Below the pieces are notes generated by a model. That model searched no databases. It worked only from the letters and a program-made list of their open reading frames with translations, and was not told the DNA's origin. From an uncultured Candidatus Saccharibacteria bacterium (GTDB lineage: Bacteria > Patescibacteriota > Minisyncoccia > Phycocordibacterales > SIBU01), in the NCBI GenBank assembly GCA_964355335.1, contig CAYHDB010000001.1:23387-87386 (forward strand): a stretch of DNA of 64,000 nucleotides, written 5' to 3'. Both the position numbers and the translations under genes were made by a program. Below, piece after piece: positions 43,655 to 61,483 of this stretch (position 1 is its first letter; each line of letters begins with the position of its first letter).

Positions 43655-43765
43655 CCGTCCACAGGTGCACATCATCTGCCGATGTGCCCGAGTCATCGAG
43701 GCGGAGGATTTCAAAATCCCTCGTCTCATAAGAATGAGCCACTCCCTTTTGAAAAGGGAGAATAA
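43655..43765. repeat. Modular three-hairpin element, family 4, copy B
   Basis: ggcggaggatttcaaaatccctc + gtctcataagaatgagcc + actcccttttgaaaagggagaa. Confidence 0.7.
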
Positions 43766-43780
43766 TAGATTTGTATTTTT

Positions 43781-44338
43781 ATGACCAAAAGAGTATTTCT
43801 TATCCATGGTTGGGATGGAAAACCCGATAACCATTGGTTTCCTTGGCTTACCTGGGAGCTAAAGGCTCGTGGTTTTGAGGTGCATTCATTGACCATGCCT
43901 CATGCGGACACACCAAAGGTTTCAGAATGGATTGCTGAAATGAAAAATATTGTCGGGCACCCAAACAAAGACACATTTTTTGTCGGTCATTCTCTTGGCT
44001 GTATCGCAATTGTTCGATATCTCGCACAACTACCTAAGACTGCTCGAGTGGGCGGGTGCGTGTTTGTAGCAGGATTTTCAAGTGATTTGGGTATCCCTGA
44101 GATTTCTGAATTTGTTTCTTTGCCTTTCGATATGGAAAAAGTCAAAAGTCACTGCTCGAAGTTTGTGAATATATTTTCTGATAATGATGAGTATGTTCCG
44201 ATGGTGAAAAGTTTGGAGTTTCAAAAAGCCCTTGGCGCGAAAGGTACTCTCGAAAGAGGAAAGGGGCATTTTACGAAAAGTCAGGGAGTCGACGCTTTAC
44301 CTTCAGTTTTTAAAGTCCTTATGGATATGGGCAGTTAA
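43781..44338 (+). CDS. alpha/beta-hydrolase (YdeN/RBBP9-like serine hydrolase)
   Basis: VFLIHGW...FFVGHSLGC (GxSxG)... Confidence 0.75.
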   Translation: MTKRVFLIHGWDGKPDNHWFPWLTWELKARGFEVHSLTMPHADTPKVSEWIAEMKNIVGHPNKDTFFVGHSLGCIAIVRYLAQLPKTARVGGCVFVAGFSSDLGIPEISEFVSLPFDMEKVKSHCSKFVNIFSDNDEYVPMVKSLEFQKALGAKGTLERGKGHFTKSQGVDALPSVFKVLMDMGS

Positions 44339-44444
44339 TCCTGCTACATAGGAATTGCCTTGTGATGCGGTGCTTGTGTCTGGAGACTAATTTTGTTAGC
44401 CTTTCATTGGAATTGAAACTAAACCCTTAACATGAGGAAGTCCT

Positions 44445-44705
44445 ATGAAAGTACGTTTTGTCGTTAATCGGAATGCCGGTTCAGTTGTTGTTGAACCTTG
44501 TGACCCAGACGCGACGCTCGAAAGGTCTCGAGTTGGCCAGGACATTTTGTCCAGCGAGACATTCGTCGCGGCCATTTCGACGCAGGAGTTTACACCCCAT
44601 CAACTTTCCGACCAGAATTTTCTCGATGCTCTTGCCGAGGCATTTGCTCTTGGCCAAAAATTCGAGCAAGAAGTGAGACGTGAGCGGGTAACAGCATTCG
44701 ATTGA
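44445..44705 (+). CDS. hypothetical protein
   Basis: An 86-aa ORF. Confidence 0.3.
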   Translation: MKVRFVVNRNAGSVVVEPCDPDATLERSRVGQDILSSETFVAAISTQEFTPHQLSDQNFLDALAEAFALGQKFEQEVRRERVTAFD

Positions 44706-44855
44706 AAAGTATCAATACTCCGCCAGCACAGGCCGGCGGTCCGCCCGTATCGAACCGGAATTCGTTCCATTCGTGCGGGTTTTTTTATGATAAAATATCT
44801 CTTGCGGCGTAATTTCCTTTAATTTTGAGTTTTGCGCTTTAAACTTTAAACTCTC

Positions 44856-45449
44856 ATGTCCCACCATCTCTATCACACCCCCGGATTTATCCTCGGAAGC
44901 CATGTTTCAGGAGAAGCAAACAAAGTGTTTCGTATTTTCACCAGGGATTTGGGTTTGGTGCGTGCTACGGCTCAGGGAGTGAGATATCTGAAATCCAAAC
45001 TCCGCTACAGTCTCCAAGATTTTTCATATGTCGACTTGTCGCTAGTTCGTGGACAGGAAGTCTGGAGGATTACTGGAGCGGTCAAGAAAGACGATTTGTT
45101 TAGTGTTTTTCGAGAGGATTTCACTATGTTAGCTGTTTTTGGCCGTGTATTTTCTTTGCTTGAAAGATTGTTATCAGGAGAAGAAAAGAATGAGCGTCTG
45201 TGGCAATATCTCGAAGAAGCGGTTTTGTTTGCGATTTCCAAAAAGCGTTCAGCCGAGCTTGTCCGCAATTTTGAGTACATCCTGGTCCTGAGGATTCTCG
45301 GCAGTTTGGGATATCTGGGACAGTCTCCGGAGACCTTCACTTTTGTCGAGTCACCGTATTGGAGCGAAGAACTTTTGATAGGTCTGAATGAGGCTATTCC
45401 TCTTGTAGTAGGTGAAATAAACAAATCGTTAAGAGAAACCCAATTGTAA
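44856..45449 (+). CDS. recO: DNA repair protein RecO
   Basis: HTPGFILGSHVSGEANKVFRIFTRDLGLVRATAQGVRYLKSKLRYSLQDFSYVDLSLVRG is a RecO N-terminal OB-fold pattern. Confidence 0.6.
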   Translation: MSHHLYHTPGFILGSHVSGEANKVFRIFTRDLGLVRATAQGVRYLKSKLRYSLQDFSYVDLSLVRGQEVWRITGAVKKDDLFSVFREDFTMLAVFGRVFSLLERLLSGEEKNERLWQYLEEAVLFAISKKRSAELVRNFEYILVLRILGSLGYLGQSPETFTFVESPYWSEELLIGLNEAIPLVVGEINKSLRETQL

Positions 45450-45490
45450 GCGTGTTATAATGTTGTTCTGGTATATTTGACCTTATTCTA

Positions 45491-47446
45491 ATGAAATCCG
45501 ACGATCTCCCAAATTTGAAGAAATTAGATGATTCCGATGACCCGATGAACTCTCTCGAGGAGCGTCTCTATTCTCGCGAGAATAATTTTTCTGCTGTTAC
45601 TTCAAGCCAGTCACGTCTTAAGAAGCACGACCTAGGTGTTCGAAAGGATTGGGGCAACGAAGCCCCCGGTTTTAAAAAAGTTTTTCAGGATAATACACCA
45701 CATATGCCATTTCTTAAAAAATTATTTATTTTTTCGGTAATTTTTTTCCTTATTTCTGTATCTGTTGCAGGTTACGTTTTTTTTGCCGGTGGTAATGTTA
45801 TATCTTCAAGCAATGTGGACATAAGCATCACTGGACCTGTATCCGTTGCCGGGGGAGAGATTCTTCCGCTTGAAATAAAAGTGACCAACCAAAACAATGC
45901 TGACCTTGAAGCTGCAGACTTGGTAATCGATTATCCCGAGGGCACGAGGCAGGCTGAGGATATGACCGTGACATTGAAGCGTTACCGAGAAGATTTGGGC
46001 ACAATCATCAAGGGGGGGAGTGTCACGAAGAAAGTTCAAGCCGTTCTATTCGGCCAAGAAGGAGACGTGAAGGATTTGAATATTTCGGTTGAATACCGCG
46101 TGAAAGGTTCGAACGCCATCTTGCCCAAGAAAAAAGTATACAGTGTCGCGTTGAGTTCTTCCCCTGTGACTATGACAGTTACTTCCGTTAAGGAGCTGAA
46201 CGCCAATCAAGAGGCCGAGTTCACGGTGACAGTTGTCTCCAATGCAAGTGCGGTTATTCAGAAGCTCTCATTGGCAGCTGATTATCCGTTCGGGTTTACT
46301 TTTTCAGGTTCAGATCCGAAGCCGTCGTGGAGTAATAGTTATTGGAGGCTAGGTGATTTGAAACCCGGAGTAAAACGTGTAGTGAAAGTGAGAGGTTCGA
46401 TAGCCGGACAAGACAATGAAGACCGTGTGTTTAAGTTCTCGGTTGGAACGGAAAGCGCTACAAACGACAGCGCGATAGGAACAAATTTTCTTACCGCGAC
46501 TCAGACAGTTGCCATAAAGAAGCCGTTTATCGGTACTACTTTTGCCCTAGATGGAGATACGGATGAAATCTACGCGGTACGTGCAGGAAGAACTCTTCGG
46601 GCCGATTTGGGACTTACAAACAACATTGGCGCGAAGATGACGGATATTAAAGTTGCCGTAAAAATTACTGGAAGTATTTTTGACCAGTCATCGGTTTCTC
46701 TTTCAAACGGTTTTTACAGATCATTTGATAAAACAATCATTTGGGACCAGACATTGAAGTCGCAGTTGGCTGTGCTTAATCCGGATGACCAGATTGCACT
46801 AAGTTTTTCGCTTGGTATTTTGCCTGAATCCGAGCTCAGATCCATAAATAGTCCGGAGATGACTTTGGTCGCTACTATTACAGGGAAGCGGTTGAGTGAG
46901 GCCGGACTTTCTCAGGAGGTTTCATCCAGTGTCGTCAGAAAAGTTCGGGTGCCTTCAAGTATCGGTATTTCTACACGTTCGCTGTATTATTCCGGACCTT
47001 TTGTAAATACAGGGCCGATCCCGCCAAAGGCCGACAACGATACGAGCTATACGATTGTCTGGTCACTGACGAACGGGTCTACCGATTTGTCCAATGTCAA
47101 AGTCACCGCCACCTTGCCATCGTATGTAAAGTGGCTGGCCGTCTCAGCGCCAAATTCCGAAAAGATATTGTACAATCCTGTTGGAGGGCAGGTGGTGTGG
47201 GACGTAGGAGATTTGTCAGCCGGAACGGGTTTTTCAAGTTCACCAAGAGAAGTCAGTTTCCAAGTTTCTCTCACTCCGAGTATCAATCAGGTGAAGACCG
47301 CTCCGATTTTGATAACGGAGGCCACAGCTAAAGGCGAGGACAACTTTGCTGACCAGACTGTGACGACAATATCAAGGGAGGCACTTACGACAGAGCTGGG
47401 TACGGATATAAGTTGGAAAATCGGACAGGGGAGTGTGGTGAGGTAA
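45491..47446 (+). CDS. large hypothetical membrane-anchored protein with repeated beta-sandwich-like segments
   Basis: A 651-aa product with a TM at about residue 75 (LFIFSVIFFLISVSVAGYVFF), then a Ser/Thr/Val-rich extracellular region. Confidence 0.45.
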   Translation: MKSDDLPNLKKLDDSDDPMNSLEERLYSRENNFSAVTSSQSRLKKHDLGVRKDWGNEAPGFKKVFQDNTPHMPFLKKLFIFSVIFFLISVSVAGYVFFAGGNVISSSNVDISITGPVSVAGGEILPLEIKVTNQNNADLEAADLVIDYPEGTRQAEDMTVTLKRYREDLGTIIKGGSVTKKVQAVLFGQEGDVKDLNISVEYRVKGSNAILPKKKVYSVALSSSPVTMTVTSVKELNANQEAEFTVTVVSNASAVIQKLSLAADYPFGFTFSGSDPKPSWSNSYWRLGDLKPGVKRVVKVRGSIAGQDNEDRVFKFSVGTESATNDSAIGTNFLTATQTVAIKKPFIGTTFALDGDTDEIYAVRAGRTLRADLGLTNNIGAKMTDIKVAVKITGSIFDQSSVSLSNGFYRSFDKTIIWDQTLKSQLAVLNPDDQIALSFSLGILPESELRSINSPEMTLVATITGKRLSEAGLSQEVSSSVVRKVRVPSSIGISTRSLYYSGPFVNTGPIPPKADNDTSYTIVWSLTNGSTDLSNVKVTATLPSYVKWLAVSAPNSEKILYNPVGGQVVWDVGDLSAGTGFSSSPREVSFQVSLTPSINQVKTAPILITEATAKGEDNFADQTVTTISREALTTELGTDISWKIGQGSVVR

Positions 47447-47548
47447 CTGAATTACAGATTACTTATAACTAAATGACTGAATTACAGACCCCTTTTTATT
47501 TTTGTCATTCAGTGATAGGTTATTCAGTAATAAGTTGTAAGTTGAAGG
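47447..47548. repeat. Palindromic word repeat, family 2, second copy
   Basis: ctgaattacagattacttataactaaatgactgaattacag...cattcagtgataggttattcagtaataagttg. Confidence 0.8.
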
Positions 47549-47583
47549 GGCAGAGATTATAGAAATGGATAACGCTATGTGCA

Positions 47584-48987
47584 ATGAATAAATCAAAATC
47601 CGAAAGTAGCGACATTATGGAAAAGTTGGTTTCGCTCTGTAAGCGACGCGGGTTTGTCTATCAAGGTTCCGAAATTTATGGTGGACTCGCGGGTCTCTAC
47701 GATTTTGGACCGTATGGCGTTGAACTTTTAAATAATATAAAGGCTTCTTGGTGGAAAGAAAATGTACACAAGAGGGAAAATTATGTTGGACTTGATTCCG
47801 CAATGTTTAAAGACCCTCGAGTTTGGGAAGCATCGGGGCACACCAAAGGTTTTTCCGATCCACTTTCCGAGTGTAGGAAGTGCAATACCAGAATTAGAGT
47901 TGATAAAGAACTCGAAAAGATTGGCGTCGTTGCGGATGAGAAGATGACGGAAGTCGAACTCAACACTCTTTTCACAGACAACAAATCCAAAATTAAATGC
48001 ATAAAATGCGGAAGTAAAGATTTTACGCCTGTTCGAGCTTTCAACCTCCTCGTTAAATCTAATCTGGGCGATTTTACCAATGCGGGAGAAAGTCCTGTGT
48101 ATTTGCCGGGTGAAGCTTGCCAGGGAATATATTTGAATTATAAAAATATAATCGATACGACACGGGTGAAGATACCCTTCGGCGTCGCACAGATTGGCAA
48201 GGCGTTTAGAAACGAAATATCACCACGGAATTTTCTTTTTCGAGTTAGGGAATTTGAACAGGCCGATACACAGTTTTTTGTTCGACCTAACGAAAATAAA
48301 GACGCGTACGAAAATATAAAAAAAGAGCGCTGGGCTTGGTATCTCAGTTTGGGGATACGGGAACAGAATCTAAAATGGAAGCAACATGAGAATTTAGTTT
48401 TTTATGCTTCTGATGCGTGGGATATCCTCTATAATTTCCCAACATATGGCTTCGATGAAGTTGAAGGAGTTCACGATCGTACCAACTATGATTTAACTCA
48501 GCATATGAAATATTCTGGTGTAGATTTGAATTATACCGATCCTCAAACGGGGGAGAAATTTATTCCGTGGATTTTGGAAACTTCAATGGGTCTTGGAAGG
48601 GTGTTTTTGGCGGTAATGTCAGATGCTTATTTTGAAGACGAAATTGGTGGTGAGACTCGAGTTGTATTGAAACTTGCAAAGCATCTGGCTCCAGTAAAGG
48701 TGGCGGTCTTTCCGCTTCTCAAAAACAAACCTCATCTCGTAGAAAAGGCGAGGGAGGTCTACAAAATGTTGAAGAAAGAAATGACTTGTGAATTTGACGA
48801 CAACGGTAACATCGGCAAACGCTATCGCCGTCAGGATGAAATTGGCACCCCGTATTGCGTGACGGTTGATTTTGACACCGTGGAAAAAGACCAATCGGTC
48901 ACCGTCCGCGACCGCGATACGGGAAAGCAGGATCGTGTTGCTCTACAGGAGCTTGCGGAATTTCTAAAAACCAGATTAATCGCGTGA
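47584..48987 (+). CDS. glyQS: glycine--tRNA ligase (dimeric class II type)
   Basis: MEKLVSLCKRRGFVYQGSEIYGGLAGLYDFGPYG and class II motifs. The start may be the internal Met at 47617. Confidence 0.9.
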   Translation: MNKSKSESSDIMEKLVSLCKRRGFVYQGSEIYGGLAGLYDFGPYGVELLNNIKASWWKENVHKRENYVGLDSAMFKDPRVWEASGHTKGFSDPLSECRKCNTRIRVDKELEKIGVVADEKMTEVELNTLFTDNKSKIKCIKCGSKDFTPVRAFNLLVKSNLGDFTNAGESPVYLPGEACQGIYLNYKNIIDTTRVKIPFGVAQIGKAFRNEISPRNFLFRVREFEQADTQFFVRPNENKDAYENIKKERWAWYLSLGIREQNLKWKQHENLVFYASDAWDILYNFPTYGFDEVEGVHDRTNYDLTQHMKYSGVDLNYTDPQTGEKFIPWILETSMGLGRVFLAVMSDAYFEDEIGGETRVVLKLAKHLAPVKVAVFPLLKNKPHLVEKAREVYKMLKKEMTCEFDDNGNIGKRYRRQDEIGTPYCVTVDFDTVEKDQSVTVRDRDTGKQDRVALQELAEFLKTRLIA

Positions 48988-49011
48988 TGTAAGTGTCTGC
49001 TTGTCTATTCT

Positions 49012-50403
49012 ATGAAGATGCACCAATCGTTCGATGTACCTCCACTTTCCGATGAGATCGGCGACTATGAGGCTGAAGTGGCGGAGGGAATCGAAGAAAA
49101 GAAAGGCGGTGAATCTCTGCCGGATCACCGAGCCGGTGAGCCTGAAGGTCTTCCTGTTGAGGGAGAATTCAATCCTACTCTCGAACTTGAAAAAGTCCGA
49201 GCTCTTAGAGGTGTAGAGAGGCAGAATGCCTTGCGTGTCTTTAAGGAAAAACTGACAGCTCAGAAAGAGGGAATAGCACTCATGCAAGAGCGCATTATTT
49301 CCGAGATCAGAAAGGGCCCCGATCTCTCCGAAGAAGCCATCATGACTTTTGTCGAGCCGTTCAAAAAACAATATGGCTTGACTCACGAACAGGTATCGGC
49401 GACAAGAGACGTTGTGCGTGCGTTTCATGAGAAGCACGATGCCGTAAAAGAAATGCGGGAATCATATCCCGATGATGCCCATTTATTTGAGTCTCTCTTC
49501 GGTAAAGCTCCTCTTGGCAGGGTTGAAATCATTGCTGGTCCGATAACGCTTTACACCCGCTGTTATGACGAGAGAGATTATGCATATATTTACAGGCAAA
49601 AATTTTTAAAACGCGACGAGGTTACTCAAGAAGACATCCTCGATGCTGATAAAAGTGGTGGCGTGAGCCTGGGGACAGCCCGACAGCAAGAGTTGAGAGG
49701 GTGCCTTATTGCTGAGAACGTAAAAGGGGTACCAGACGAGACAACGCATATACATGAAGAGCAACACGCTGTAAAACGTCTCTTTCAAAGTGCGATACAG
49801 GACGATGTTCCGGAGGTTTCCGTGCTTGAAAGATGGTCGCGTGGCGAACCATTGTCGGGTAATGAAGACATCAAAAAGCGTCCTTTCCAAAACAAGTCAA
49901 AGGAGGTCCCGCTTCTCCCTGTCTTAGAAGCGAAAGATGATACCGAGCGGGCAAGCTCGCTTCTCCGGTGGTTGCGTTACAAAAGGGAATCAATTGAGGA
50001 AAGTGCCAGGGATGAAATTTTCGCGTATCTTAAAACTATTCCACTGAGGACATTCAAAAACCCGGTGCTCAAGGAGGAGCCCGCCAAATTTTCACGGAAC
50101 GAAGATAATGTATATAAGACCCTCACTCGATCGGAAAAGGATGGAGGTTTGTATGATTACTACGCAGATACAAAACCGGAACTCATGAAGATGCTTCTTT
50201 CCGAGTTGGGGTCGGAAAAAACAGAGTTGGTACAGAAGTCTATGGAAAAAGTATTTGTCACCGAGTATCGTACTCTTATCCGTGATGGAATAGATACCTT
50301 TTTGACTTTGCGAAGAAGGGGAAATTCAGTTGAAAAAACTATCGGCTTACTTGTGAATGAGCCTTTGCGTAAATGGCCAAAAGTTGTTGACCGACTAGGT
50401 TAA
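49012..50403 (+). CDS. hypothetical protein
   Basis: A 463-aa acidic protein with no recognised motifs. Confidence 0.4.
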   Translation: MKMHQSFDVPPLSDEIGDYEAEVAEGIEEKKGGESLPDHRAGEPEGLPVEGEFNPTLELEKVRALRGVERQNALRVFKEKLTAQKEGIALMQERIISEIRKGPDLSEEAIMTFVEPFKKQYGLTHEQVSATRDVVRAFHEKHDAVKEMRESYPDDAHLFESLFGKAPLGRVEIIAGPITLYTRCYDERDYAYIYRQKFLKRDEVTQEDILDADKSGGVSLGTARQQELRGCLIAENVKGVPDETTHIHEEQHAVKRLFQSAIQDDVPEVSVLERWSRGEPLSGNEDIKKRPFQNKSKEVPLLPVLEAKDDTERASSLLRWLRYKRESIEESARDEIFAYLKTIPLRTFKNPVLKEEPAKFSRNEDNVYKTLTRSEKDGGLYDYYADTKPELMKMLLSELGSEKTELVQKSMEKVFVTEYRTLIRDGIDTFLTLRRRGNSVEKTIGLLVNEPLRKWPKVVDRLG

Positions 50404-50684
50404 AAGTTCACAGTTTGTATGCGGAAAGGCAAAGGCGGGATAGATAAGTCTGCCTTTGTCGTAACGTCGTATAGGGATTTGACATCTTTTTTCAAAGATG
50501 TAGCATAAGCTTTATGTACAGGAGAACAACTTCAGTCGTCTCAGTCATTCTTCTAAGCTTTTCCAGAGCTGATTTTTGAGATTGTCTGACAACAATACGA
50601 TCCCAAGAATAAGCTCTGGAAACACTCCAGAGTTTCTTCTTTGCCAAATGTGCGGTGAAGAAGTATCGGTGATAAATTAGTTCG

Positions 50685-51155: not shown

Positions 51156-51289
51156 TTTGTTCTTTCGTTCCGCGTTAGTCCGTCAATATTCAGACGGACT
51201 TTTCTTTTGCCTTTATTCTCTGTCGTTGGTATCATTCGAAGGCAACTTTATTCTCCCTTTGATAAAGGGAGCCCGCCCGTACCGAAACG

Positions 51290-51412
51290 GCACCTGCCCG
51301 ACTACATTCAGGCGGGCGTTCGGGCGGGTACCGCATTCTGACGCGGGGGAGGGATTTAAATCCTCCGTTTTATCAAACTAAAACACCTCCTTTTATAAAG
51401 GAGGAATCAGAC
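51290..51412. repeat. Modular three-hairpin element, family 4, copy C, ending in an SD sequence for the M16 peptidase gene
   Basis: gcccgactacattcaggcgggc + gggggagggatttaaatcctcc + gttttatcaaactaaaac + cacctccttttataaaggaggaa, 9 nt before the ATG at 51417. Confidence 0.7.
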
Positions 51413-51416: not shown

Positions 51417-52685
51417 ATGAAATATAATAAAAAAATTCTAAAAAATGGTGTCCGCTTCATTACCATCCCAATGCCGGATAGTCCGACGGCCACATTTATG
51501 GTGTTGGTAGAAGCAGGTTCAAAATATGAGACGAAAAATCTTTCGGGAGTTTCGCATTTTCTTGAACATATGGTTTTTAAAGGGACGAGTAAACGGCCCC
51601 GCCCAATCGATATCTCTCTTGAGCTCGATGCTTTGGGTGCCCAATACAACGCCTTCACCAGTCAGGAATACACAGGCTATTATGCGAAGGCTCATAAAGA
51701 TAAGACTTCCACTATCATAGATATTATTTCCGATATGTATTTAAATCCGAGTCTTCCAGAAGCCGAACTTGCCAAGGAGAAAGGAGTAATTATTCAGGAG
51801 ATAAATATGTATGAAGACGAGCCGATGCGTCACGTGCAAGATTTATTTATGGAACTTTTGTACGGAACTCAGCCTGCCGGATGGAATATTGCGGGCTCTA
51901 AAGAAAGTGTGACTGATCTGATGCGTGAACATGTATTTAAATACCGCGAGAGTCACTACGTGGGGGAGGCGACAGTGGTGATTGTTTCGGGAGCATTTGA
52001 TGAAGCGAAAATTGAGAAACAAGTCAATTCGCTTTTCAAATCAATGCCGGTTTCCAGAAAGCCGGTTAAGGAAGCTGTTGCTGAAAATCAGAAAGCTCCA
52101 GCTTCGGTCATTTCTTTCAAGCAGACTGATCAAGCGCATCTTGTGCTCGGTGTTCGTGCTTTCAGTACCTATGATGCCAAAGCCCCTATTTTGCGGGTAC
52201 TGAGCGCGGTATTGAGCGGGGGAATGAGCTCGAGACTTTTTGTAAAAATGCGTGATGAACTCGGGTTATGCTACTACGTTTCTGCCAGCCCCGATTTGTA
52301 TACCGACCACGGAGTCTTTCAGGTTTGTGCAGGAGTCGATACGGCAAAGGTTCCGGTTGCTATCGAGGCAATCTTAGCCGAATTGAAATCTCTGGTATCT
52401 AAGCCAGTTCCGAAAGAAGAATTGCGCAAAGCAAAGGATTTTCTCATAGGTAATCTCTATCTTGGTCTGGAATCTTCGGATGAACTTGCGCAGTTTGTCG
52501 GTTTCCAAGAGGTGTTACGCAAGCCATTGAAAAAGGCTGAGCAAGTCGTGAAGGAAATCGAGGCGGTCACGGTTGCCGATATTCAAAAACTTGCAGGTGA
52601 GCTTTTCACGTCAGACAAATTAAATCTCGCCCTAATCGGGCCGTTTAAGGATAAAAAAGAGTTTTCGGATTTGCTGAAACTTTAG
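51417..52685 (+). CDS. M16-family zinc peptidase (insulinase-like)
   Basis: GVSHFLEHMVFKGT is the inverted zinc-binding HxxEH motif. Confidence 0.85.
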   Translation: MKYNKKILKNGVRFITIPMPDSPTATFMVLVEAGSKYETKNLSGVSHFLEHMVFKGTSKRPRPIDISLELDALGAQYNAFTSQEYTGYYAKAHKDKTSTIIDIISDMYLNPSLPEAELAKEKGVIIQEINMYEDEPMRHVQDLFMELLYGTQPAGWNIAGSKESVTDLMREHVFKYRESHYVGEATVVIVSGAFDEAKIEKQVNSLFKSMPVSRKPVKEAVAENQKAPASVISFKQTDQAHLVLGVRAFSTYDAKAPILRVLSAVLSGGMSSRLFVKMRDELGLCYYVSASPDLYTDHGVFQVCAGVDTAKVPVAIEAILAELKSLVSKPVPKEELRKAKDFLIGNLYLGLESSDELAQFVGFQEVLRKPLKKAEQVVKEIEAVTVADIQKLAGELFTSDKLNLALIGPFKDKKEFSDLLKL

Positions 52686-53843: not shown

Positions 53844-53844
53844 C

Positions 53845-55305: not shown

Positions 55306-55310
55306 CAAAT

Positions 55311-55341
55311 AAAAAAACTCCCGAATCTGATTGATTTGGGA
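55311..55341 (+). terminator. Rho-independent terminator
   Basis: aaaaaactcccgaatctgattgatttgggag. Confidence 0.55.
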
Positions 55342-55349
55342 GCGGGCCT

Positions 55350-55841: not shown

Positions 55842-55979
55842 AATTTTTCTGTGATTTCCCTTGTCAGGGGTTGTTTCGTTTCGAGGTTCATTCGACAGTA
55901 CTGCCGATGATTTAATCACAAAAGAAGTTTTCGTCAAGTTATTACTGTTTCGCCTTCTGTGATACTCTGTCCGCATTAT

Positions 55980-57260
55980 ATGGATAAAAGTTTTTTACGT
56001 TTCAAGACAGCCGTTGAATATATAGACAGTCTGGGAAACCTGCCTTTGTTTGACGACTATATGTCTGGCACCGCCAAGCCTCACCCGGAAATATTTCTCA
56101 AAAGAATGAGATATTTTTTGGATTTGCTTGGAAATCCGGAGAGAGGTTTTAAGTTTGTTCATATTACCGGCACCTCTGGAAAGGGAACTGTGGCAACAAT
56201 GGTTCACAACGGTCTGGTGGCTTCCGGAAAATCCTGTGGTCTTTTCACCTCGCCTTATGTGGTAAGTCCTCTGGAGAAAATTCAGGTAAATGATTTGTAT
56301 ATTTCTCCTGACGAGTTTGCAGATATTTTCGAGGAGATAAAACCTTTCATCGATAAGGCATATATTTCAGGTGAGTTCGGTCGTCCGTCATATTTTGAAA
56401 TCTACCTTGCAATGGCTTTTGCCTATTTCAAGAAAAAAAAATGCGAGTGGGCAGTGCTTGAAGTCGGCTGTGGGGGAAGGTATGACGCCACCAATATTAT
56501 CCCGGCTCCAGTGGCTAGCGCCATCACTTGTATTGATTATGACCACATTGAGATTTTGGGTAAAACGTTGAATAAGATAGCTTTGGACAAGGCGGGAATA
56601 ATTAAGAAAGGCTCAACGTTTTTTACTGCCGAACCGCGCCAACCATTGAGAAAGATGTTTAGAGAGGTTTGTCTCAAGGAAGGTGCTTCATGTGAGGAGG
56701 TTTCTCCGAAGGTGGGCGACGATTCCAACGCGGTACTTGCGGAAACAATTTTGCGGTCCATCGGTGTTTCAGATGTTTTTATTCAACAAGGCTTAGGTTA
56801 CACAAAATTACCTGCGCGGTTTGAGATAATGCAGAAGAAACCGCTAGTAATAATTGATGGTGCGCATAATCGTTCCAAGGTCGCACATACAGTTGCGTTG
56901 CTTAGGAAACAAAAATATAAAAAGCTGTTTTTAATTCTTGCGATTGCAAACAACAAAGACAGTGAGGACATTCTTACGCAAATCGTACCGCTTGCCGATA
57001 AAGTTTTTCTTACCAGATTTCTTTCTATGGATAGAAAGCCTGCACCTCCTGCTCGTTTAATGACGGAGCTAAAGCCCCATCTTAAACCCGGAGCCACTGT
57101 GGAGATTCTCCTCGATCCGACGGATGCATATGATAAGGCTAGGGTAAAATCCGAAAATGAAGATTGTATTTTGGTCACAGGCTCTTTTTATCTTGCGGGT
57201 GAATTGCGCAAGAAATGGTATCCCGAGGAGGTGGTCGCCCAAAGGCGAAAAAGTTTCTAG
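55980..57260 (+). CDS. folC: folylpolyglutamate synthase / dihydrofolate synthase (Mur ligase family)
   Basis: HITGTSGKGTVATM is a Mur ligase P-loop, followed by IDGAHN. Confidence 0.85.
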   Translation: MDKSFLRFKTAVEYIDSLGNLPLFDDYMSGTAKPHPEIFLKRMRYFLDLLGNPERGFKFVHITGTSGKGTVATMVHNGLVASGKSCGLFTSPYVVSPLEKIQVNDLYISPDEFADIFEEIKPFIDKAYISGEFGRPSYFEIYLAMAFAYFKKKKCEWAVLEVGCGGRYDATNIIPAPVASAITCIDYDHIEILGKTLNKIALDKAGIIKKGSTFFTAEPRQPLRKMFREVCLKEGASCEEVSPKVGDDSNAVLAETILRSIGVSDVFIQQGLGYTKLPARFEIMQKKPLVIIDGAHNRSKVAHTVALLRKQKYKKLFLILAIANNKDSEDILTQIVPLADKVFLTRFLSMDRKPAPPARLMTELKPHLKPGATVEILLDPTDAYDKARVKSENEDCILVTGSFYLAGELRKKWYPEEVVAQRRKSF

Positions 57261-57290
57261 GGTCGAGGGTCGTGATATAATTTCTCAATC

Positions 57291-58130
57291 ATGTTTGATT
57301 ACATAGACGTACATTCCCACGTCAATTTTGTTGCTTTTGACGCTGATAGAGAGGAGACGATAAAACGTGCTTTGGACAACGGTGTTTATGTGATAAATGT
57401 TGGGACCCAAGTAGATACTTCAAAGAAGGCCATAGAAATGGCGGAAAAATACGAAAAGGGTGTTTATGCCATTATTGGTCTTCATCCTGTTCATACCGAC
57501 AAATCTTTTCATGATGAAAAGGAGCTAGGAGAAGGCGGAAAGGAGTTCACGAGTCGAGGAGAAGTGTTTGACGAAAAAGCTTATCTAGATATGGCTAAGC
57601 ACCCGAAAGTTGTCGGTATAGGGGAGTGTGGTTTGGATTACTACCGGTTGGAACTTGAAAGTGAAAGAAAACAACGCGAGGCTTTTTCTACGCAAATTAA
57701 TGTTGCAAATGAATCAGGAAAACCTCTAATGCTTCATGTAAGAAATGGTTCAGACAAATCCGCATACCGCGATGCGCTGGCGATTTTAAAGTCTGAAGCC
57801 AAGGTGAAGGGCGACTTTCATTTCTTTGCCGGAAATTGGGATGAGGCGAAAGAGATTTTGGATGCCGGGTTTAATCTTTCATTTACCGGTGTTATCACTT
57901 TTGCCAGAAATTATGACGAGGTGGTGAAAAATGTCCCTCTAAACAGGATTATGTCGGAGACAGATTGTCCCTATGTGACCCCGGCACCATTTAGGGGAAA
58001 GAGAAATGAGCCAATGCATGTGAGGGAAGTGGTAAAAAAGATAGCTGAGATAAGGGGAGAAAATTTTGAAATCGTCAGGAGACAACTTGTGCAAAATGCC
58101 AAGGATTTTTTCAGTCTTTCTTCCGAATAA
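57291..58130 (+). CDS. tatD: TatD-family metal-dependent hydrolase
   Basis: IDVHSHVNF...GECGLDYY...MLHVRN...ETDCPY. Confidence 0.85.
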   Translation: MFDYIDVHSHVNFVAFDADREETIKRALDNGVYVINVGTQVDTSKKAIEMAEKYEKGVYAIIGLHPVHTDKSFHDEKELGEGGKEFTSRGEVFDEKAYLDMAKHPKVVGIGECGLDYYRLELESERKQREAFSTQINVANESGKPLMLHVRNGSDKSAYRDALAILKSEAKVKGDFHFFAGNWDEAKEILDAGFNLSFTGVITFARNYDEVVKNVPLNRIMSETDCPYVTPAPFRGKRNEPMHVREVVKKIAEIRGENFEIVRRQLVQNAKDFFSLSSE

Positions 58131-58207
58131 ACTGTTTTTAGCTCTAAATTAGGAATAATCTATTTATTAGTGTCAAACCCTTGATTTGGCTGTGGCACCG
58201 TGTTAGT

Positions 58208-58708
58208 ATGCTCCTCATGACTTTAAACGATAGTAATGAACAGGCAGAGAACCGTATTTACGAAATCGGTTTTCATCTTGTGTCTTCCATACCGGAAGAG
58301 AAGCTTTCTGCGGAAGTAACGATTATTAAAGACGTGTTGGAGAAGAATGGTGCGGTATTTATCTCGGAAGAGTTTCCTAAGTTGAGACCTCTCTCGTACA
58401 TGATGACCAAGGTAATTGGTCCTCGCCATCTCCGATTCGATACGGCTTATTTTGGTTGGGTTAAGTTTGAAATGGATCCTGCATCCATCGATACCGCAAA
58501 GAAGATTTTGGAGAGAAATGACAACGTCCTTCGATTTTTGATAGTAAAGACGGTTCGTGAAAGTACTCTTGCTGTCATCAAGCCACCGACATTCCGCACA
58601 GAGGAGAAGCCTATTCCCGGAATTGATGTTGTAAAAGACGCCCCAGTGAAAAGCCCAATGTCAGAAGCTGAGATGGATAAGACAATTGACTCACTTATAG
58701 TAGAATAA
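58208..58708 (+). CDS. rpsF: 30S ribosomal protein S6
   Basis: YEIGFHLVSS...RFLIVKT, in the rpsF-ssb-rpsR operon context. Confidence 0.8.
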   Translation: MLLMTLNDSNEQAENRIYEIGFHLVSSIPEEKLSAEVTIIKDVLEKNGAVFISEEFPKLRPLSYMMTKVIGPRHLRFDTAYFGWVKFEMDPASIDTAKKILERNDNVLRFLIVKTVRESTLAVIKPPTFRTEEKPIPGIDVVKDAPVKSPMSEAEMDKTIDSLIVE

Positions 58709-58712
58709 AAGC

Positions 58713-59174
58713 ATGTATCTCAATAAAGCAATTATCATAGGAAATTTGACACGCGACCCGGAAATGCGGGCGCTTCCATCCGGGATACAAGTTTGCAGTT
58801 TCAGTGTAGCGACTAATCGAGTTTTTAAAGATAAAGAGGGCAATAAGAAAGAGCAGGCAGATTTTCACAACATAGTGGTATTCGGAAGACAAGCGGAAAC
58901 AGCGGGACAGTATTTGAAGAAAGGACAGTCAGTGTTGATAGAAGGTAGAATACAGACAAGAAGTTGGGATGATAAATCAAACGGAGAGAAGAAGTATCGA
59001 ACAGAAATTGTCGCCGATCGAGTGCAGTTTGGTCCTAAGGCTGGGGCAGGTGGGGGAAGTGGAGCTTTTAGTGGTCCGAAGTCAGAATCCAAAGCTTCTT
59101 CAGGTCCCGCAGAGCCGGCTGGAGGTATCGAGTATCCAACAGACGAAATTAACCCGGAAGATATACCTTTTTAA
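58713..59174 (+). CDS. ssb: single-stranded DNA-binding protein
   Basis: [19 protein letters not shown]...[12 protein letters not shown]...acidic tail ending DIPF. Confidence 0.9.
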
Positions 59175-59185
59175 ACATTAATTAT

Positions 59186-59389
59186 ATGACAAAACAGTGT
59201 TACTTTTCACAAAATAATATCAAGTTTATAGACTACAAGGATGTAGAGCTTCTTAAGAAGTTCCTTAATCCTCACTCTCGTATGCTTTCTCGTAAGAAGA
59301 CAGGCGTAACTGCCAAGAACCAGCGTAAGCTTGCCGAGGCGGTCAAACGTGCGCGGTTTATGGGACTCTTGCCATTCGTTTCTCGATAA
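59186..59389 (+). CDS. rpsR: 30S ribosomal protein S18
   Basis: [13 protein letters not shown]...[27 protein letters not shown]. Confidence 0.9.
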
Positions 59390-59395
59390 TTTAAA

Positions 59396-59432
59396 ACAAA
59401 AAACTCCCGAGGATAATCCTCGGGAGTTTTTT
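59396..59432 (+). terminator. Rho-independent terminator
   Basis: aaaaaactcccgaggataatcctcgggagttttttg. Confidence 0.8.
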
Positions 59433-59464
59433 GTTATTTAAATCTTTAATCTTAAATCTGCCAA

Positions 59465-60034
59465 CTAGTTCACCCTCTCCACATACTCTCCAGTTTCCGT
59501 ATTGATACGGATCATTTCTCCTTGATTGATGAACATCGGGACGTTTACTGTCGCTCCGGTTTCGAGTGTGACGGTCTTTGTCCCGCCCTGAACTGTGTTG
59601 CCTTTGACGGCATCCACCGCCTCAGTCACTTTGAGCTCAACCTTGACTGGGAGTTTGAAACCGACATGGCGTTCCTGAAAAGACAGGATTTTCACTACCG
59701 TGTTTGGTTTTAGAAATTTCCCTTGTGGTCCGACAAGTTCTTCTTTCATGGCATAGCGTTTTGTTGGGTCAGCAGGGTCTGAGAACCAGAACTCGCCACG
59801 ATTGCTGTAAAGGAATTTTGCGTCTCGTGAGTCAATCTCCGCTTCCTCCACCTTTTCTGATACGTGAAAAGAGATTTCTTTCACCGAGCCGGTAATAAGG
59901 TTCTTCAATTTGGTGGCGTTGACGGGTTTTCGCTGTTGTTTGCGGAAAACGTGGGACGTCAAAACTTCATATGGCTCGTTCTCGTAAATGATGTACTTTC
60001 GCTCTTTTACTTCGTTGTATTCCAATAGAGACAT
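59465..60034 (-). CDS. efp: elongation factor P
   Basis: KLKNLITGSVKEISF...KVEEAEIDSRDAKFLYSNRGEFWF...VTLETGATVNVPMFINQGEMIRINTETGEYVERV. Confidence 0.85.
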   Translation of the reverse strand: MSLLEYNEVKERKYIIYENEPYEVLTSHVFRKQQRKPVNATKLKNLITGSVKEISFHVSEKVEEAEIDSRDAKFLYSNRGEFWFSDPADPTKRYAMKEELVGPQGKFLKPNTVVKILSFQERHVGFKLPVKVELKVTEAVDAVKGNTVQGGTKTVTLETGATVNVPMFINQGEMIRINTETGEYVERVN

Positions 60035-60094
60035 GGGTTTATAACACCTAAACAATAATAGGGGACATTCTAGCCGAGAGAAGGCCGAAAGGCA

Positions 60095-60186
60095 AATCTA
60101 AAATTACGGAATGACAAATTACTTATAACTGAATAACCGATAACATAAAGAAAAAGTAATTCAGTGATTCAGTTGTCAGTCATAAG
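60095..60186. repeat. Palindromic word repeat, family 2, third copy
   Basis: atgacaaattacttataactgaataaccg...gtaattcagtgattcagttgtcagtcataagttattcag. Confidence 0.8.
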
Positions 60187-61308
60187 TTATTCAGCGCCAT
60201 CTTCACCGGCACTTTCACCTGCGCCAGCGTTGCCTGATGTGTCGCCATCTTTTAGACGTTTCTTGATTTCTTTGAGTACCTCGTCAGCAACTTTTTTGTT
60301 TTCCTTTAGGAATTGGCGGGTAGCATCATAGCCACGGCCCAATTTGACGGTTTCTCCCTTTATCCCTTTTTCACCCTTTTCTCCCTTTTTATCTACCGGT
60401 ACATACTCATATGACTGGCCAACTTTTTTTACAAGGCCCATTTTTTCTCCGAGAGCAATGATTTCACCTTCACGGGAAATACCCTCGTTGTACATAAGGT
60501 CGAACTCTGTTTGCTTGAACGGAGCGGCCACTTTGTTCTTGACCACTTTCACACGGATGCGTCCTCCCATAATTTCTTCACCTTTTTTGATTTGAGCAAT
60601 TCGGCGGATATCGAGACGTACAGATGTGTAGAACTTAAGGGCTTTGCCCCCTGGAGTTGTCTCAGGGTTTCCAAACATCACACCGATTTGCATACGGATT
60701 TGGTTGATGAAGATGACGATGGTCTTCGACTTGGCGACAATGGCCGTGAGCTTTCGAAGAGCCTGCGACATAAGGCGTGCCTGCTTTCCGACGTGGGACT
60801 GTCCCATATCGCCCTCAATCTCGTCCTTGGGGGTCAGGGCTGCCACTGAGTCGATAACTATCACGTCTATCTTTCCGCTTCTTACAAGCGATTCTACGAT
60901 TTCCAGCGCCTGCTCTCCTGTGTCCGGTTGGGATATGAGAAGCTCGTCAATTTTTACTCCAAGTCGTTTGGAATATTCTGGGTCCATTGCGTGTTCGGCA
61001 TCAATGAAAGCGCAAATACCGCCTTTCTTTTGTGCCTCTGCAATGACATGAAGACAGAGAGTTGTTTTGCCAGATGATTCAGGTCCGAATATTTCGATGA
61101 TGCGTCCGCGGGGGAGACCTCCGACACCGAGTGCTGAGTCGAGACCGATCGAGCCAGTCGAGACAGCATTGATATCCACGTGAGGCTTCTCTCCGAGCTT
61201 CATTATCGAGTCCTCGCCGAATTTTGTTTTGATGGCGTTTAAAGTGTCCTCAATGCTTGAGCTTGTTGTCTTCAATTCTTTTTCCTTTTTTGGTTTTCCG
61301 AAGGCCAT
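60187..61308 (-). CDS. recA: recombinase RecA
   Basis: [17 protein letters not shown] (Walker A), [17 protein letters not shown]. Has a Gly/Glu-rich C-terminal extension. Confidence 0.95.
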
Positions 61309-61339
61309 AAAATTAGTTTTTAAAGTTAATAAAGTTTCA

Positions 61340-61483
61340 TTTATAATTCTCCCTTTCCTAAAGGGAGGGGACCGCTTGCGGTGAGGGATTTAAATCCTCT
61401 GTCCTCGCCCGCCAAAGTTTTGTTTTGCAAAATTTAGGCGGGCGAGCCGATTCGGCCACCTCCTTTAGGAAGGAGGAACATGA
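61340..61483. repeat. Modular hairpin element, family 4, copy D, upstream of recA
   Basis: cctttcctaaagggagggg + ggtgagggatttaaatcctct + cgcccgccaaag...ttaggcgggcg + cacctcctttaggaaggaggaa. Confidence 0.7.

Follow-up and report, generated by a model that had tools for sequence, protein, structure and literature searches.

The 64-kb window (the whole stretch of DNA that was analyzed, from a Candidatus Taylorbacteria genome) contains seven loci, and possibly an eighth, of one family of hairpin repeats, more than the earlier note had listed (Table 1). Four of them lie in frame inside genes, encoding a tRNA-binding protein (E1), an APH-like kinase (E2), an MBL-fold hydrolase (E3) and isoleucyl-tRNA synthetase (IleRS; E4). 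The three intergenic copies described previously (B, C and D) were all present, and each folded as a chain of hairpins, with single-stranded DNA folding z-scores of −5.2, −6.8 and −6.4, respectively, which were equalled by none of 200 shuffles. Copies B and C both begin earlier than had been reported, each with an extra terminal hairpin (43634 and 51253). The hairpin sequences quoted for these copies were correct, except for the final arm of copy B, which reads AAAGGGAG instead of AAAGGAGG. The "fourth copy inside a CDS" exists and corresponds to E2, but there are four such coding-sequence loci rather than one.

Table 1. Loci of the repeat family in the window and their component parts.
Locus	Position	Strand	Context	Parts
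E1	2285..2382	+	Two units, in frame within tRNA_bind gene (2166..2609)	Unit 1: AAATCCCTCC 2285-2294; spacer hairpin CGCTTcagaAAGCG 2296-2309; hairpin CTCCCTTTagaAAAGGGAG 2313-2331. Unit 2 (compact): ACCACCCCTC 2346-2355; hairpin TCCCCTCCTTagaaAAGGAGGGGA 2359-2382
E2	13704..13826	+	Complete two-unit element, in frame within APH-like gene (13337..14329)	Decayed left hairpin 13704-13722; GAGGGATTT 13769-13777; AAATCCTCC 13780-13788; spacer hairpin CTCATcagaATGAG 13791-13804; hairpin CCTCCTTTtacAAAGGAGG 13808-13826
E3	15919..16018	+	In frame, close to N-terminus of MBL-fold gene (15871..16620)	CCCTCC; spacer hairpin ATTTTcggAAAAT; hairpin CTCCCTTaccaAAGGGAG 15938-15955; spacer hairpin; mirror strand GGAGGGTT 15973-15980; CCCCCC; hairpin CCCCCTTtgttAAGGGGG 16001-16018
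E4	40060..40109	+	One unit (51 nt, 17 codons), in frame within IleRS gene (39149..42697)	AAATCCCTCC; spacer hairpin CGAATaagaATTCG; hairpin CTCCCTTTaggAAAGGGAG 40088-40106; AAT
E5 (copy B, extended)	43634..43760	+	Intergenic, 20 nt before serine hydrolase ATG (43781)	Left half: left hairpin CCTCCTTTgaaAAAGGAGG 43634-43652; variable hairpin 43667-43687; GGAGGATTT 43703-43711. Right half: AAATCCCTC 43714-43722; spacer hairpin CTCATaagaATGAG 43725-43738; right hairpin CTCCCTTTtgaAAAGGGAG 43742-43760
E6 (copy C, extended)	51253..51404	+	Intergenic, 12 nt before M16 peptidase ATG (51417)	Left half: left hairpin CTCCCTTTgatAAAGGGAG 51253-51271; long GC-rich hairpin 51272-51328; GGAGGGATTT 51348-51357. 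Right half: AAATCCTCC 51358-51366; spacer hairpin GTTTTAtcaaacTAAAAC 51367-51384; right hairpin CCTCCTTTtatAAAGGAGG 51386-51404
E7 (copy D)	61349..61476	+	Between 111-aa gene stop and recA start, both genes on − strand	Left half: left hairpin CTCCCTTTcctAAAGGGAG 61349-61367; spacer hairpin 61371-61382; GAGGGATTT 61383-61391. Right half: AAATCCTCT 61392-61400; long hairpin CTCGCCCGCC..GGCGGGCGAG 61405-61446; small hairpin; right hairpin CCTCCTTtaggAAGGAGG 61459-61476
Possible eighth locus	17854..17889	+	Weak solitary unit, intergenic	Hairpin AATCCCTTTccaAAAGGGATT, then mirror-like TGGGAAA

A covariance model of the repeat unit scored the units of E1, E4, E5 and E6 at 59, 62, 66 and 59 bits, respectively. 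E2 scored 64 bits on the + strand, with its left unit at 16 bits on the − strand, E3 scored 28 bits on the − strand, and E7 scored 47 bits on the − strand and 20 bits on the + strand. The solitary hairpin at 17854..17889 scored 16 bits (E ≈ 0.006) and could equally be explained as a terminator-like hairpin. The model yielded no further loci in the window. Pyrimidine/purine hairpins are far in excess of chance in this DNA, with about 13 found in the 64 kb against about 0.1 expected, and perfect ones numbering 13 against 0–1 per shuffle in 20 shuffles. The pattern CYYCCYTT-NNN-AAAGGRRG with at most two mismatches had 30 matches (1.4 expected), and the 47-nt unit pattern had five exact matches (0.00 expected).

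The repeat unit consists, in order, of a C/T arm, a loop, a complementary A/G arm, a small variable spacer hairpin and a third segment. The arms are a homopyrimidine tract and its complementary homopurine tract, separated by a loop of 3–4 nt (CTCCCTTT..AAAGGGAG or CCTCCTTT..AAAGGAGG). The third segment (GAGGGATTT or GGAGGATTT) mirrors the purine arm; it does not repeat that arm directly, nor is it the reverse complement. As a sequence pattern, such a mirror-related segment is characteristic of an intrastrand triplex motif, of the kind represented by the E. coli BoxC, PIT and TMECO elements (Hoyne and Maher 2000, as cited in Holder et al. 2015, NAR 43:10126, PMC4666352). One strand reads pyrimidine-purine-purine, the order of a purine-motif (class II) triplex (G.G-C, A.A-T, T.A-T), and the opposite strand reads the matching pyrimidine-motif order. 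Between the hairpin and the third strand, most units have a spacer hairpin of 15–19 nt, and the left halves of E5 and E6 have 46–77 nt; these distances exceed the loops of only 1–6 nt in the published definition of the motif (PMC4666352).

A full element consists of two units arranged head to head, with halves of different type (CTCCC and CCTCC) and third strands that face each other, mimicking a central hairpin. What had been taken for a conserved first hairpin is this pair of opposed third strands; its arms are imperfectly complementary to each other, and each matches its own adjoining hairpin by the triplex rule. In E5 and E6 the two types occur in swapped order, and the central arms are swapped accordingly. 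The same was seen beyond the window: among the matches listed in a genome scan, two-unit elements gave 46 strand readouts (many elements contributing one for each strand), of which 37 were heterotypic, with imperfectly complementary central arms and the rule exact on both sides, and four combinations of types occurred, from different phyla.

The scan covered mostly metagenome-assembled genomes (MAGs), and its unit counts refer to the matches listed and are lower bounds. The two variable positions of third strand and purine arm were matched in 110 of the 122 unique units listed (CC-GG in 66, CT-GA in 24 and TC-AG in 20), making the mirror rule nearly as strict as Watson–Crick pairing within the hairpin itself (115 of 122). 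Among the listed units with a hairpin and a downstream G-block, 171 of 183 showed the mirror relation; where the cores were asymmetric and hence informative, 44 of 49 were mirror and two were direct. In an alignment of 30 Patescibacteria units, the parallel third-strand rule was obeyed in 120 of 120 cells and 14 of the 30 sequences switched both sides, although covariation within Patescibacteria is essentially two-state (CTCCC vs CCTCC), so that independent events are fewer than these counts suggest; independent support came mostly from other phyla with other cores. None of 500 shuffles of this alignment matched the observed percentage paired, both-side changes or covariation score, and slid controls dropped to 50–75%. 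The spacer hairpin had both-side changes at all seven of its pairs and 59 distinct stem arms, with a mean MFE of −4.35 kcal/mol, compared to −1.83 kcal/mol in shuffles (Wilcoxon p = 4e-10). Stems of the repeats do show compensatory changes.

Inside genes, the elements are accommodated without loss of the reading frame. E1 splits the Pfam tRNA_bind match and occupies a loop that ranges from 5 to about 90 aa in 120 homologues. The AlphaFold model of this protein had a pLDDT of 47–50 at residues 41–70 and about 87–94 elsewhere; the OB fold is otherwise predicted with confidence, and the insert is a loop of low confidence that is apparently disordered. The frame remains open through E2, and in the E3 gene the Pfam domain match begins only at residue 55, past the insert. 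The E3 units are oriented opposite to those of E1 and E4. In verified genes elsewhere, sense in-frame inserts were found in UvrD/AddA, QueA, AroA, PrmC, Lgt and a glycosyltransferase, and antisense ones in MurG, UvrA and an MmeI-type enzyme.

The copies vary between relatives. E4 is missing from the 85%-identical orthologue, and from 28 of 29 aligned IleRS orthologues in all (including a DNA alignment), while an orthologue of 63% identity carries a near-identical unit at the same site. DNA comparison showed that E5, like E4, is missing from the 85%-identical relative L003; from the gene map, the relative's spacer before the M16 gene is 77 nt, compared to 261 nt here, leaving no room for E6. 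The left half of E7 shares its subfamily with an element that lies within a UvrD/AddA-type gene in another Taylorbacteria genome (L087). Spacer sequence is shared between E2 and E5, and likewise between E1 and E4. More than 117 genome stretches, spanning many phyla, carry the unit, which often lies in frame within conserved genes and occurs in both orientations. The analysis revealed neither a mobilising enzyme nor a target-site duplication, and no exact insertion boundary. The proposal of a distinctive family of structured, modular and possibly mobile repeats was upheld.

The earlier note had preferred to see in these copies an element that sequesters the Shine–Dalgarno (SD) sequence, either an RNA thermometer or a riboswitch platform, of the downstream hydrolase, M16 peptidase and recA genes. 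A stable hairpin indeed pairs AAAGGAGG with CCTCCTTT, just as an AGGAGG-like purine run pairs with a CCUCCU-like run in thermometers (ROSE, fourU) and riboswitch platforms, and E6 ends 12 nt upstream of an ATG. However, in the three intergenic copies the purine arm and the start codon are 12, 20 and about 40 nt apart: in copy C, GGAGG ends at 51404 and the ATG is at 51417, giving 12 nt instead of the 9 nt claimed; in copy B the spacing of about 20 nt was accurate; and copy D does lie upstream of recA, its nearest arm ending about 40 nt from the ATG at 61308. SD sequences are scarcely used in this genome: an SD-like 4-mer is missing within 25 nt upstream of 53 of the 62 predicted genes in the window, and the only upstream GGAGG among them is that of copy C. 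Seven of the 13–14 hairpins bearing AGGAGG or AGGGAG lie within coding sequences, and the same purine/pyrimidine hairpin is found at the distal end of every element, facing away from the gene. In the relative at 85% identity, copy B is missing before the orthologous gene and copy C is excluded by gene spacing. SD sequestration also leaves unexplained the three-part symmetry (hairpin plus mirror strand) of which the "anti-SD/SD" pairing forms one side. There is no conserved core resembling a ligand-binding site, and no Rfam family matches the elements. The likeness to thermometers and riboswitch platforms is one of composition, and position, conservation and genomic context all differ. Unsupported by position, SD use, relatives and in-gene copies, SD sequestration is almost certainly not the explanation, and we infer that AGGAGG is the purine arm, a by-product with no part in translation initiation.

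We also considered the possibility that the elements are conventional MITEs, i.e., non-autonomous transposons whose ends are inverted repeats (ATTCYCCYTTT ... AAAGGRGGAAT) and whose movement depends on a transposase supplied in trans from elsewhere; the internal symmetry would then represent the binding sites of that transposase. Full elements do have inverted ends, copies are present or absent between relatives, copies of one genome have spacer sequence in common (E2/E5; E1/E4), and one subfamily occurs at different loci in different Taylorbacteria. On the other hand, a Pfam scan of the 17 ORFs adjoining or containing elements showed no transposase-like domain, E5, E6 and E7 show no visible direct target-site duplication, and single units without inverted ends exist (E1, E4). 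A dimer binding to inverted repeats would not yield a mirror relation, and the same architecture occurs across phyla with different cores (GGGGG, GAGGG, GGAGG, GGGAG) that all keep the mirror rule, a pattern more easily reconciled with a structural constraint than with a protein site of specific sequence. MITEs are a rather unlikely explanation. (The MITE proposal concerns the mode of movement and is partly compatible with a triplex-motif explanation.) An element acting in the transcript, either in mRNA stabilisation or termination, like REP/BIME, or as a pyrimidine-motif RNA triple helix (U.A-U, C+.G-C) with a protective or regulatory effect on the message, is improbable. The sense strand of E1, E2, E4, E5 and E6 reads pyrimidine third strand, spacer hairpin, hairpin, so that an RNA triplex is possible in principle, and pyrimidine-type intrastrand triplexes can form in RNA (Holder et al., PMC4666352). 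The hairpin stems covary, and co-directional genes flank the intergenic copies. Yet five consecutive C+.G-C triplets are disfavoured at neutral pH, both orientations relative to transcription occur inside verified genes (E3 vs E1/E4, and the sense and antisense cases elsewhere), and a terminator or processing site within IleRS, UvrA or MurG would be expected to be harmful. The hairpins of copies B, C and D lack a following T-run, and the lack of an Rfam match counts against an RNA element as well. The encoded peptides (NPSxxxxxVLPLEKGE, SPFxKGG and similar) might be selected as a useful surface feature of the host proteins, with the DNA symmetry secondary, consistent with the preserved reading frames and the many inserts accumulated in one loop of the tRNA-binding protein. 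This is very improbable: three of the seven loci lie between genes, the inserts use at least two reading frames and both orientations, and the loop predicted for the insert has low confidence and is apparently disordered. Conservation is seen in the nucleotide symmetry (mirror, hairpin and compensatory spacer changes), whereas the peptide encoded by the spacer part varies freely.

Among known repeats, the closest parallels in architecture are BoxC, PIT and TMECO, which are likewise short and interspersed, with a pyrimidine block, a loop, a complementary purine block and a mirror-symmetric second purine-type block (class II purine motif); they too have palindromic double versions and ties to variable loci, and no associated transposase is known. 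The TMECO core is CCCTCNCCC/GGGNGAGGG, compared to CYYCCYTT/AAAGGRRG/GRRGGATTT here, and its second "loop" is 3 nt, whereas here it is usually a structured spacer hairpin of 15–19 nt. Unlike TMECO, full elements here have heterotypic halves, the hosts belong to many phyla, including Patescibacteria, and the family often resides in frame within genes, while TMECO is reported as always intergenic (PMC4666352). The TMECO pattern had no matches in the 64-kb window; at locus L030, a TMECO-consensus motif and a unit of this family are 155 nt apart. REP/BIME, REPIN and pneumococcal BOX elements are also interspersed, hairpin-forming, modular or mosaic repeats, with variable numbers of modules between conserved ends. 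Unlike the present family, REPs are linked to RAYT transposases, and REP and BOX elements lie outside genes and lack a mirror third strand. REPs are marked by a GTAG or CGTC tag (PMC3733652); neither tag flanks the hairpins of copies B, C and D. Like the present family, the Rickettsia palindromic elements (RPE) are short palindromic repeats in a reduced genome, found both between genes and in frame within essential protein-coding genes, where they add a peptide at a tolerated surface loop. To our knowledge, RPE are palindromes of about 100–150 bp, restricted to Rickettsia, for which neither mirror nor triplex symmetry has been described. By description, the units here differ from the RPE, reportedly described by Ogata et al. 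in 2000, in being about 50 nt long, modular and spread across phyla.

The symmetry with its covariation, the modularity, the presence and absence between relatives, the in-frame residence in both orientations and the wide phyletic spread are established here. Judging from these sequence features, the elements are probably copies of a structured DNA repeat built on an intrastrand triplex motif, and we read them as a repeat that is spreading. When the DNA becomes single-stranded during replication, transcription or repair, a unit would fold into its hairpin, with the third strand in the groove. Stable intrastrand triplexes are reported for TMECO/BoxC oligonucleotides in vitro, as is an unusual degree of rearrangement at TMECO loci between E. 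coli strains (Holder et al. 2015, PMC4666352); earlier work, as cited there, reported that these elements block DNA polymerase in vitro and found no effect of the E. coli elements in vivo. By analogy with BoxC/TMECO, folded units here may impede polymerases and promote rearrangement. The repeat would multiply or be copied into new sites by some mechanism, and copies would persist only where they are harmless, in intergenic spacers or, if their length is a multiple of three, in the surface loops of proteins.

The window has a GC content of ≈44% and carries the majority of its genes on the + strand. The nearest named relatives of its IleRS (39149..42697) are Taylorbacteria proteins, and the window was assigned to a Candidatus Taylorbacteria genome (Parcubacteria/Patescibacteria). 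The three intergenic repeat copies B, C and D described in an earlier note (here E5, E6 and E7) were confirmed in the sequence, each forming a chain of hairpins when folded. Folded as single-stranded DNA, they gave z = -5.2, -6.8 and -6.4, respectively, and 0/200 shuffles were equally good. Their limits needed correction, since the left terminal hairpin of E5 and E6 had been overlooked, and the single member thought to lie inside a coding sequence turned out to be one of four, found by a scan for perfect hairpins and by motif searches.

The seven repeat loci of the window, with their hosts or downstream genes
Locus	Span	Location	Host assignment
E1	2285-2382	in tRNA_bind protein gene	Pfam
E2	13704-13826	in APH-like kinase gene	Pfam
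E3	15919-16018	in MBL-fold hydrolase gene	Pfam
E4	40060-40109	in IleRS gene	Pfam
E5 (copy B)	43634-43760	intergenic, upstream of serine hydrolase gene	
E6 (copy C)	51253-51404	intergenic, upstream of M16 peptidase gene	
E7 (copy D)	61349-61476	intergenic, upstream of recA	

The repeat family exceeds chance by far in the window. Perfect pyrimidine/purine hairpins with arms of 7–10 bp and loops of 3–4 nt occur 13 times, against 0–1 in shuffles; the hairpin pattern matched 30 times (1.4 expected), and a 47-nt unit pattern had five exact matches where 0.00 were expected. A covariance model of the unit, a search suggested in the earlier note, was built from 30 units and run on both strands of the window; it recovered the same loci, with no other notable match.

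A unit of constant length, which reads AAATCCyyy, 19 nt, and then CyyCCyTT-nnn-AAAGGrrG, is common to five copies. The pyrimidine block and its Watson-Crick complementary purine block are paired in 100% of the cells in 30 aligned units. The 19-nt spacer is a small hairpin of its own, with compensatory stem changes between copies (CTCAT/ATGAG, CGAAT/ATTCG, CGCTT/AAGCG and GTTTTA/TAAAAC). Compensatory base changes, in whose absence the earlier note would have seen a recent repeat, are thus present: across the 30 aligned units, all seven pairs of the spacer hairpin (7/7) have changed on both sides. Among the matches listed from other genomes, the spacers of 122 units fold better than their own shuffles (p = 4e-10) and use 59 distinct stem arms.

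The first block of the unit follows the hairpin: first block AAATCCCTC accompanies AAAGGGAG, and first block AAATCCTCC accompanies AAAGGAGG. Read along the opposite strand, the unit runs from a hairpin, CTCCCTTT..AAAGGGAG, through the spacer hairpin to GAGGGATTT, a final block that mirrors the purine arm and is neither its copy nor its reverse complement. The purine-motif strand of the E4 unit (the reverse complement of window 40058–40109), for example, is ATTCTCCCTTTCCTAAAGGGAGCACCGAATTCTTATTCGTGGAGGGATTTTT. Judged from the sequence, this order is that of a putative intrastrand purine-motif triplex (G.G-C, A.A-T, T.A-T), with the complementary strand in the pyrimidine-motif arrangement.

A full element consists of two units placed head to head, and its ends are the terminal inverted repeats ATTCYCCYTTT ... 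AAAGGRGGAAT; the single units at E1 and E4 are without one end. What the earlier note described as a conserved first hairpin, GGAGGGATTT/AAATCCTCC, consists of two third strands that face each other. The first loop is 3–4 nt long, and the second connector is usually a spacer hairpin of 15–19 nt, and for the left half of E5 and of E6 it measures 46–77 nt; a compact connector of 3 nt is found only in the second unit of E1.

The mirror arrangement was tested in the window and in other genomes. A mirror third block (G/A/T, antiparallel to the purine block) lies within 45 nt of 10 of the 13 window hairpins. Among the matches listed, 110 of the 122 distinct units taken from other genomes follow the rule, close to the 115 of 122 that keep Watson-Crick pairing in the hairpin, and a mirror block is present in 171 of 183 units whose definition made no use of the rule. 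Forty-nine of these 183 have an asymmetric core, able to separate a mirror from a direct repeat, and they divide into 44 mirror and 2 direct. In the 30-unit alignment, 120/120 cells fit, with 14 of the 30 sequences switched on both sides, compared to 50–75% in slid controls.

Two-unit elements gave the strongest evidence. In 37 of 46 strand readouts (many elements being entered once per strand), the halves are unlike and the central arms are imperfectly complementary, and each central arm fits its own adjacent hairpin exactly; these readouts include four type combinations, in different phyla. E5 and E6 likewise have the two unit types in reversed order, with the central arms reversed to match. 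Mirror symmetry thus overrides Watson-Crick complementarity, which argues for a triplex-type interaction; the constraint would be hard to explain otherwise. Such a structure would be expected to fold in vivo, where it may affect replication or recombination.

The earlier note had taken the AGGAGG of the purine arm for a functional Shine-Dalgarno (SD) sequence, sequestered in the last hairpin as in an RNA thermometer or the platform of a riboswitch. This reading has in its favor the position of E6, where GGAGG lies 12 nt before the ATG of the M16 gene, the only such occurrence upstream of a start among 62 genes. The purine arm is 20 nt from the start codon of the hydrolase at E5 and ~40 nt from that of recA at E7, however, and all three gaps exceed the ~5–10 nt of a functional SD. 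SD-like 4-mers are absent from the 25 nt upstream of 53 of the 62 predicted genes, and the leaders are A/T-rich. Seven purine-arm hairpins lie within coding sequences, and conservation of the elements is lacking at the hydrolase gene (as seen in L003, the genome with the 85%-identical IleRS) and, by gene spacing, at the M16 gene. SD sequestration was rejected on SD usage, spacing and non-conservation; the purine arm resembles an SD only incidentally. The earlier note was right that the elements are real, but wrong in its main interpretation, and if this holds, AGGAGG hairpins 5' of genes in such genomes should not be taken as SD switches.

Known RNA and DNA elements fared no better. At the gathering score, Rfam returned only tRNAs from the window, and under permissive settings the top match for copy C scored 17 bits, with the threshold at 37. 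The candidates rejected were a hammerhead-like core (no CUGAUGA), CRISPR repeats (no array), an origin from a tRNA T-arm (unsuitable loop), a G-quadruplex (just three G-runs per strand) and REP/REPIN elements (every terminal hairpin is flanked by ATT/AAT, with no GTAG or CGTC tag).

Two other palindromic repeats were seen in the window. Two near-identical, perfect 38-bp palindromes (16686–16723 and 17099–17136), with 17-bp stems and the core GCTACTCTTTAC, lie 413 bp apart and flank the end of the ORF at 16641..17060. Their loops, ttgg and ccaa, make them inverted copies of one another, with no relation to the triplex-motif family. An 18-nt hairpin, CGCGAGAgctaTCTCGCG, occurs at 32125–32142 and 32748–32765, 623 bp apart.

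When 185,579 species genomes were scanned for the unit pattern, at least 117 stretches matched, where ~3 chance matches would be expected by our estimate for equal base frequencies. Among the matches listed, the hosts include Patescibacteria (Taylor-, Nomura-, Lipton-, Jackson-, Shapiro- and Moranbacteria, Saccharibacteria and Gracilibacteria), Gammaproteobacteria (Acinetobacter, Lysobacter, Pseudoxanthomonas, Methylococcaceae and Competibacteraceae), and Oscillospiraceae, Spirochaetota, Verrucomicrobia, Nitrospirae, Omnitrophota and others. The core varies by lineage (GGGGG, GGGAG, GGAGG or GAGGG), and the architecture is constant. IMG/VR yielded only 12 matches, and so gave no indication that phages are the chief carriers. 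A spacer of the form xyz-TCGC-nnn-GCTC-z'y'x', in which the outer 3 bp covary, is common to many non-Patescibacteria units (stretches L019, L027, L038, L055, L057, L063, L064, L107, L115 and L117). On the purine strand these spacers read GAGC-nnn-GCGA inside, a hairpin with tandem G.A mismatches, and GCGAAGC-like mini-hairpin sequences are often included.

The reading frame is open across all four in-gene copies. The E1 insert fills a loop of the tRNA-binding protein between LSVDFG and RDIRQIVSGI, which in 120 homologues (P0121–P0240) varies from 5 to ~90 residues and is crowded with element-derived peptides in both orientations. This EMAP/CsaA-like Parcubacterial protein (gene 2166–2609) carries tandem and nested element-derived peptides, such as the three TPFAKGE in homologue P0185, and its surface loop is an insertion hot spot. 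In the AlphaFold model, the OB fold is confident and the insert is a low-confidence loop (residues 41–70, pLDDT 47–50). An example of a predicted insert-spanning peptide is NPSTLQKAVLPLEKGE.

Verified genes elsewhere hold units in frame in the sense orientation (UvrD/AddA, QueA, AroA, PrmC, Lgt and the genes of a glycosyltransferase, of an M56 peptidase and of a pyridine nucleotide-disulphide oxidoreductase) and in the antisense orientation (MurG, UvrA and an MmeI-type enzyme). In-frame palindromic insertion with the gene intact is thus seen in the four window genes and in at least 10 verified genes of other genomes. In the window, the unit in E3 is oriented opposite to those in E1 and E4, and the occurrence of units in either orientation makes a function in sense RNA less likely. 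The IleRS also has a His_Phos_1 domain inserted mid-enzyme (residues 522–693), common to all of the best 120 Parcubacteria/Patescibacteria IleRS matches.

Comparison with related genomes revealed gain and loss of the elements. The 17-codon insert E4 is absent from the 85%-identical IleRS and, overall, from 28 of 29 aligned orthologues. A near-identical unit occupies the same codon position in the 63%-identical IleRS of stretch L121 (1501–5061, residues ~304–324); its conserved blocks and hairpin loop are identical to those of E4, and the spacer stem alone differs. Since orthologues closer than that of L121 are without the unit, the shared position suggests either repeated insertion at a single site or transfer. 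E5 is absent from L003, whose ileS–hydrolase spacer is 179 nt. The spacer upstream of the M16 gene is 261 nt here, including the 152-nt E6, and 77 nt in L003 by the gene map, too short for E6, which is probably missing there as well. An element within a UvrD/AddA-type gene of another Taylorbacteria genome corresponds to the left half of E7.

No direct repeat suggestive of a target-site duplication was evident at the flanks of E5, E6 or E7, and the divergence within the filled/empty IleRS pair for E4 was too high to fix the insertion boundaries. A Pfam scan of 17 ORFs near the elements found no transposase domain. Two ORFs, 42812–43450 (212 aa) and 49012–50403 (463 aa), matched nothing in Pfam, and the gene map of L003 shows no counterpart of either. 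The 212-aa ORF, immediately upstream of E5, was considered as a transposase and rejected; it is GC-rich, has a signal-peptide-like N-terminus, and is probably an unrelated strain-specific gene.

The BoxC/PIT/TMECO repeats of E. coli were recognized decades ago, and to our knowledge neither their function nor the way they spread has been established. Motifs for intrastrand triplexes abound in prokaryotes, and BoxC/PIT/TMECO is a class II motif, CCCTCNCCC-N3-6-GGGNGAGGG-N3-GGGNGAGGG, that forms a stable triplex in vitro, is always intergenic, has no tie to mobile elements already known and marks loci with unusual rearrangement (Holder et al. 2015, PMC4666352). In symmetry the present family agrees with this motif, but in sequence it differs, and membership in TMECO/BoxC proper was rejected, as the exact consensus has 0 matches in the window; among 133 loci it has one, L030. 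At that locus, in a Hyphomicrobiales MAG, 155 nt separate the motif from a unit of the present family (2531–2563 and 2718–2762), suggesting that different triplex-motif families can cluster. Both loops are 1–6 nt in the ITxF definition and the second TMECO loop is 3 nt, whereas the present family has a structured spacer hairpin at this position, too long a connector for most units to be caught by the published ITxF search. The present family further differs from TMECO in its heterotypic double units, its many phyla and its frequent location inside genes.

Rickettsia palindromic elements (RPE) reside in frame inside protein-coding genes. The resemblance of the present family to RPE in this respect is functional only, the host here being Patescibacteria, and membership is not claimed. 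A literature search, with most subscription journals outside its coverage, found no account of these features or of such Patescibacteria repeats; searches on the nucleotide blocks, the encoded peptides and Patescibacteria repeats gave nothing specific, and one directly relevant paper (PMC4666352).

Taken together, the best explanation of the elements is a family of DNA repeats built on a triplex motif, which would be a BoxC/PIT variant that behaves like RPE and whose members spread and are tolerated in spacers and protein loops. A broader reading is possible, although we hold it to be rather unlikely: a pan-bacterial, structure-defined mobile DNA, in which the conserved entity is a foldable triple-helix unit (hairpin, spacer hairpin and mirror strand) instead of a sequence or an enzyme, and which spreads within and between phyla and routinely enters essential genes in frame. 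If this were true, copies would be made by a structure-specific copying or insertion mechanism, or with a host factor that recognizes triplex DNA, and the three-way covariation would be comparative-genomic evidence of in vivo selection on triplex formation. If the favored explanation holds, the symmetry of BoxC/PIT/TMECO extends to a far wider family, in which the third strand covaries about as strictly as the Watson-Crick partners, and selection on non-B DNA folding becomes testable through sequence comparison. By their in-frame location in core genes (IleRS, UvrA, MurG, AroA, QueA and the tRNA-binding protein, in Patescibacteria and other phyla), the repeats would also make protein loops vary and give rise to artefacts in annotation and alignment, much as RPE do but probably far more widely.
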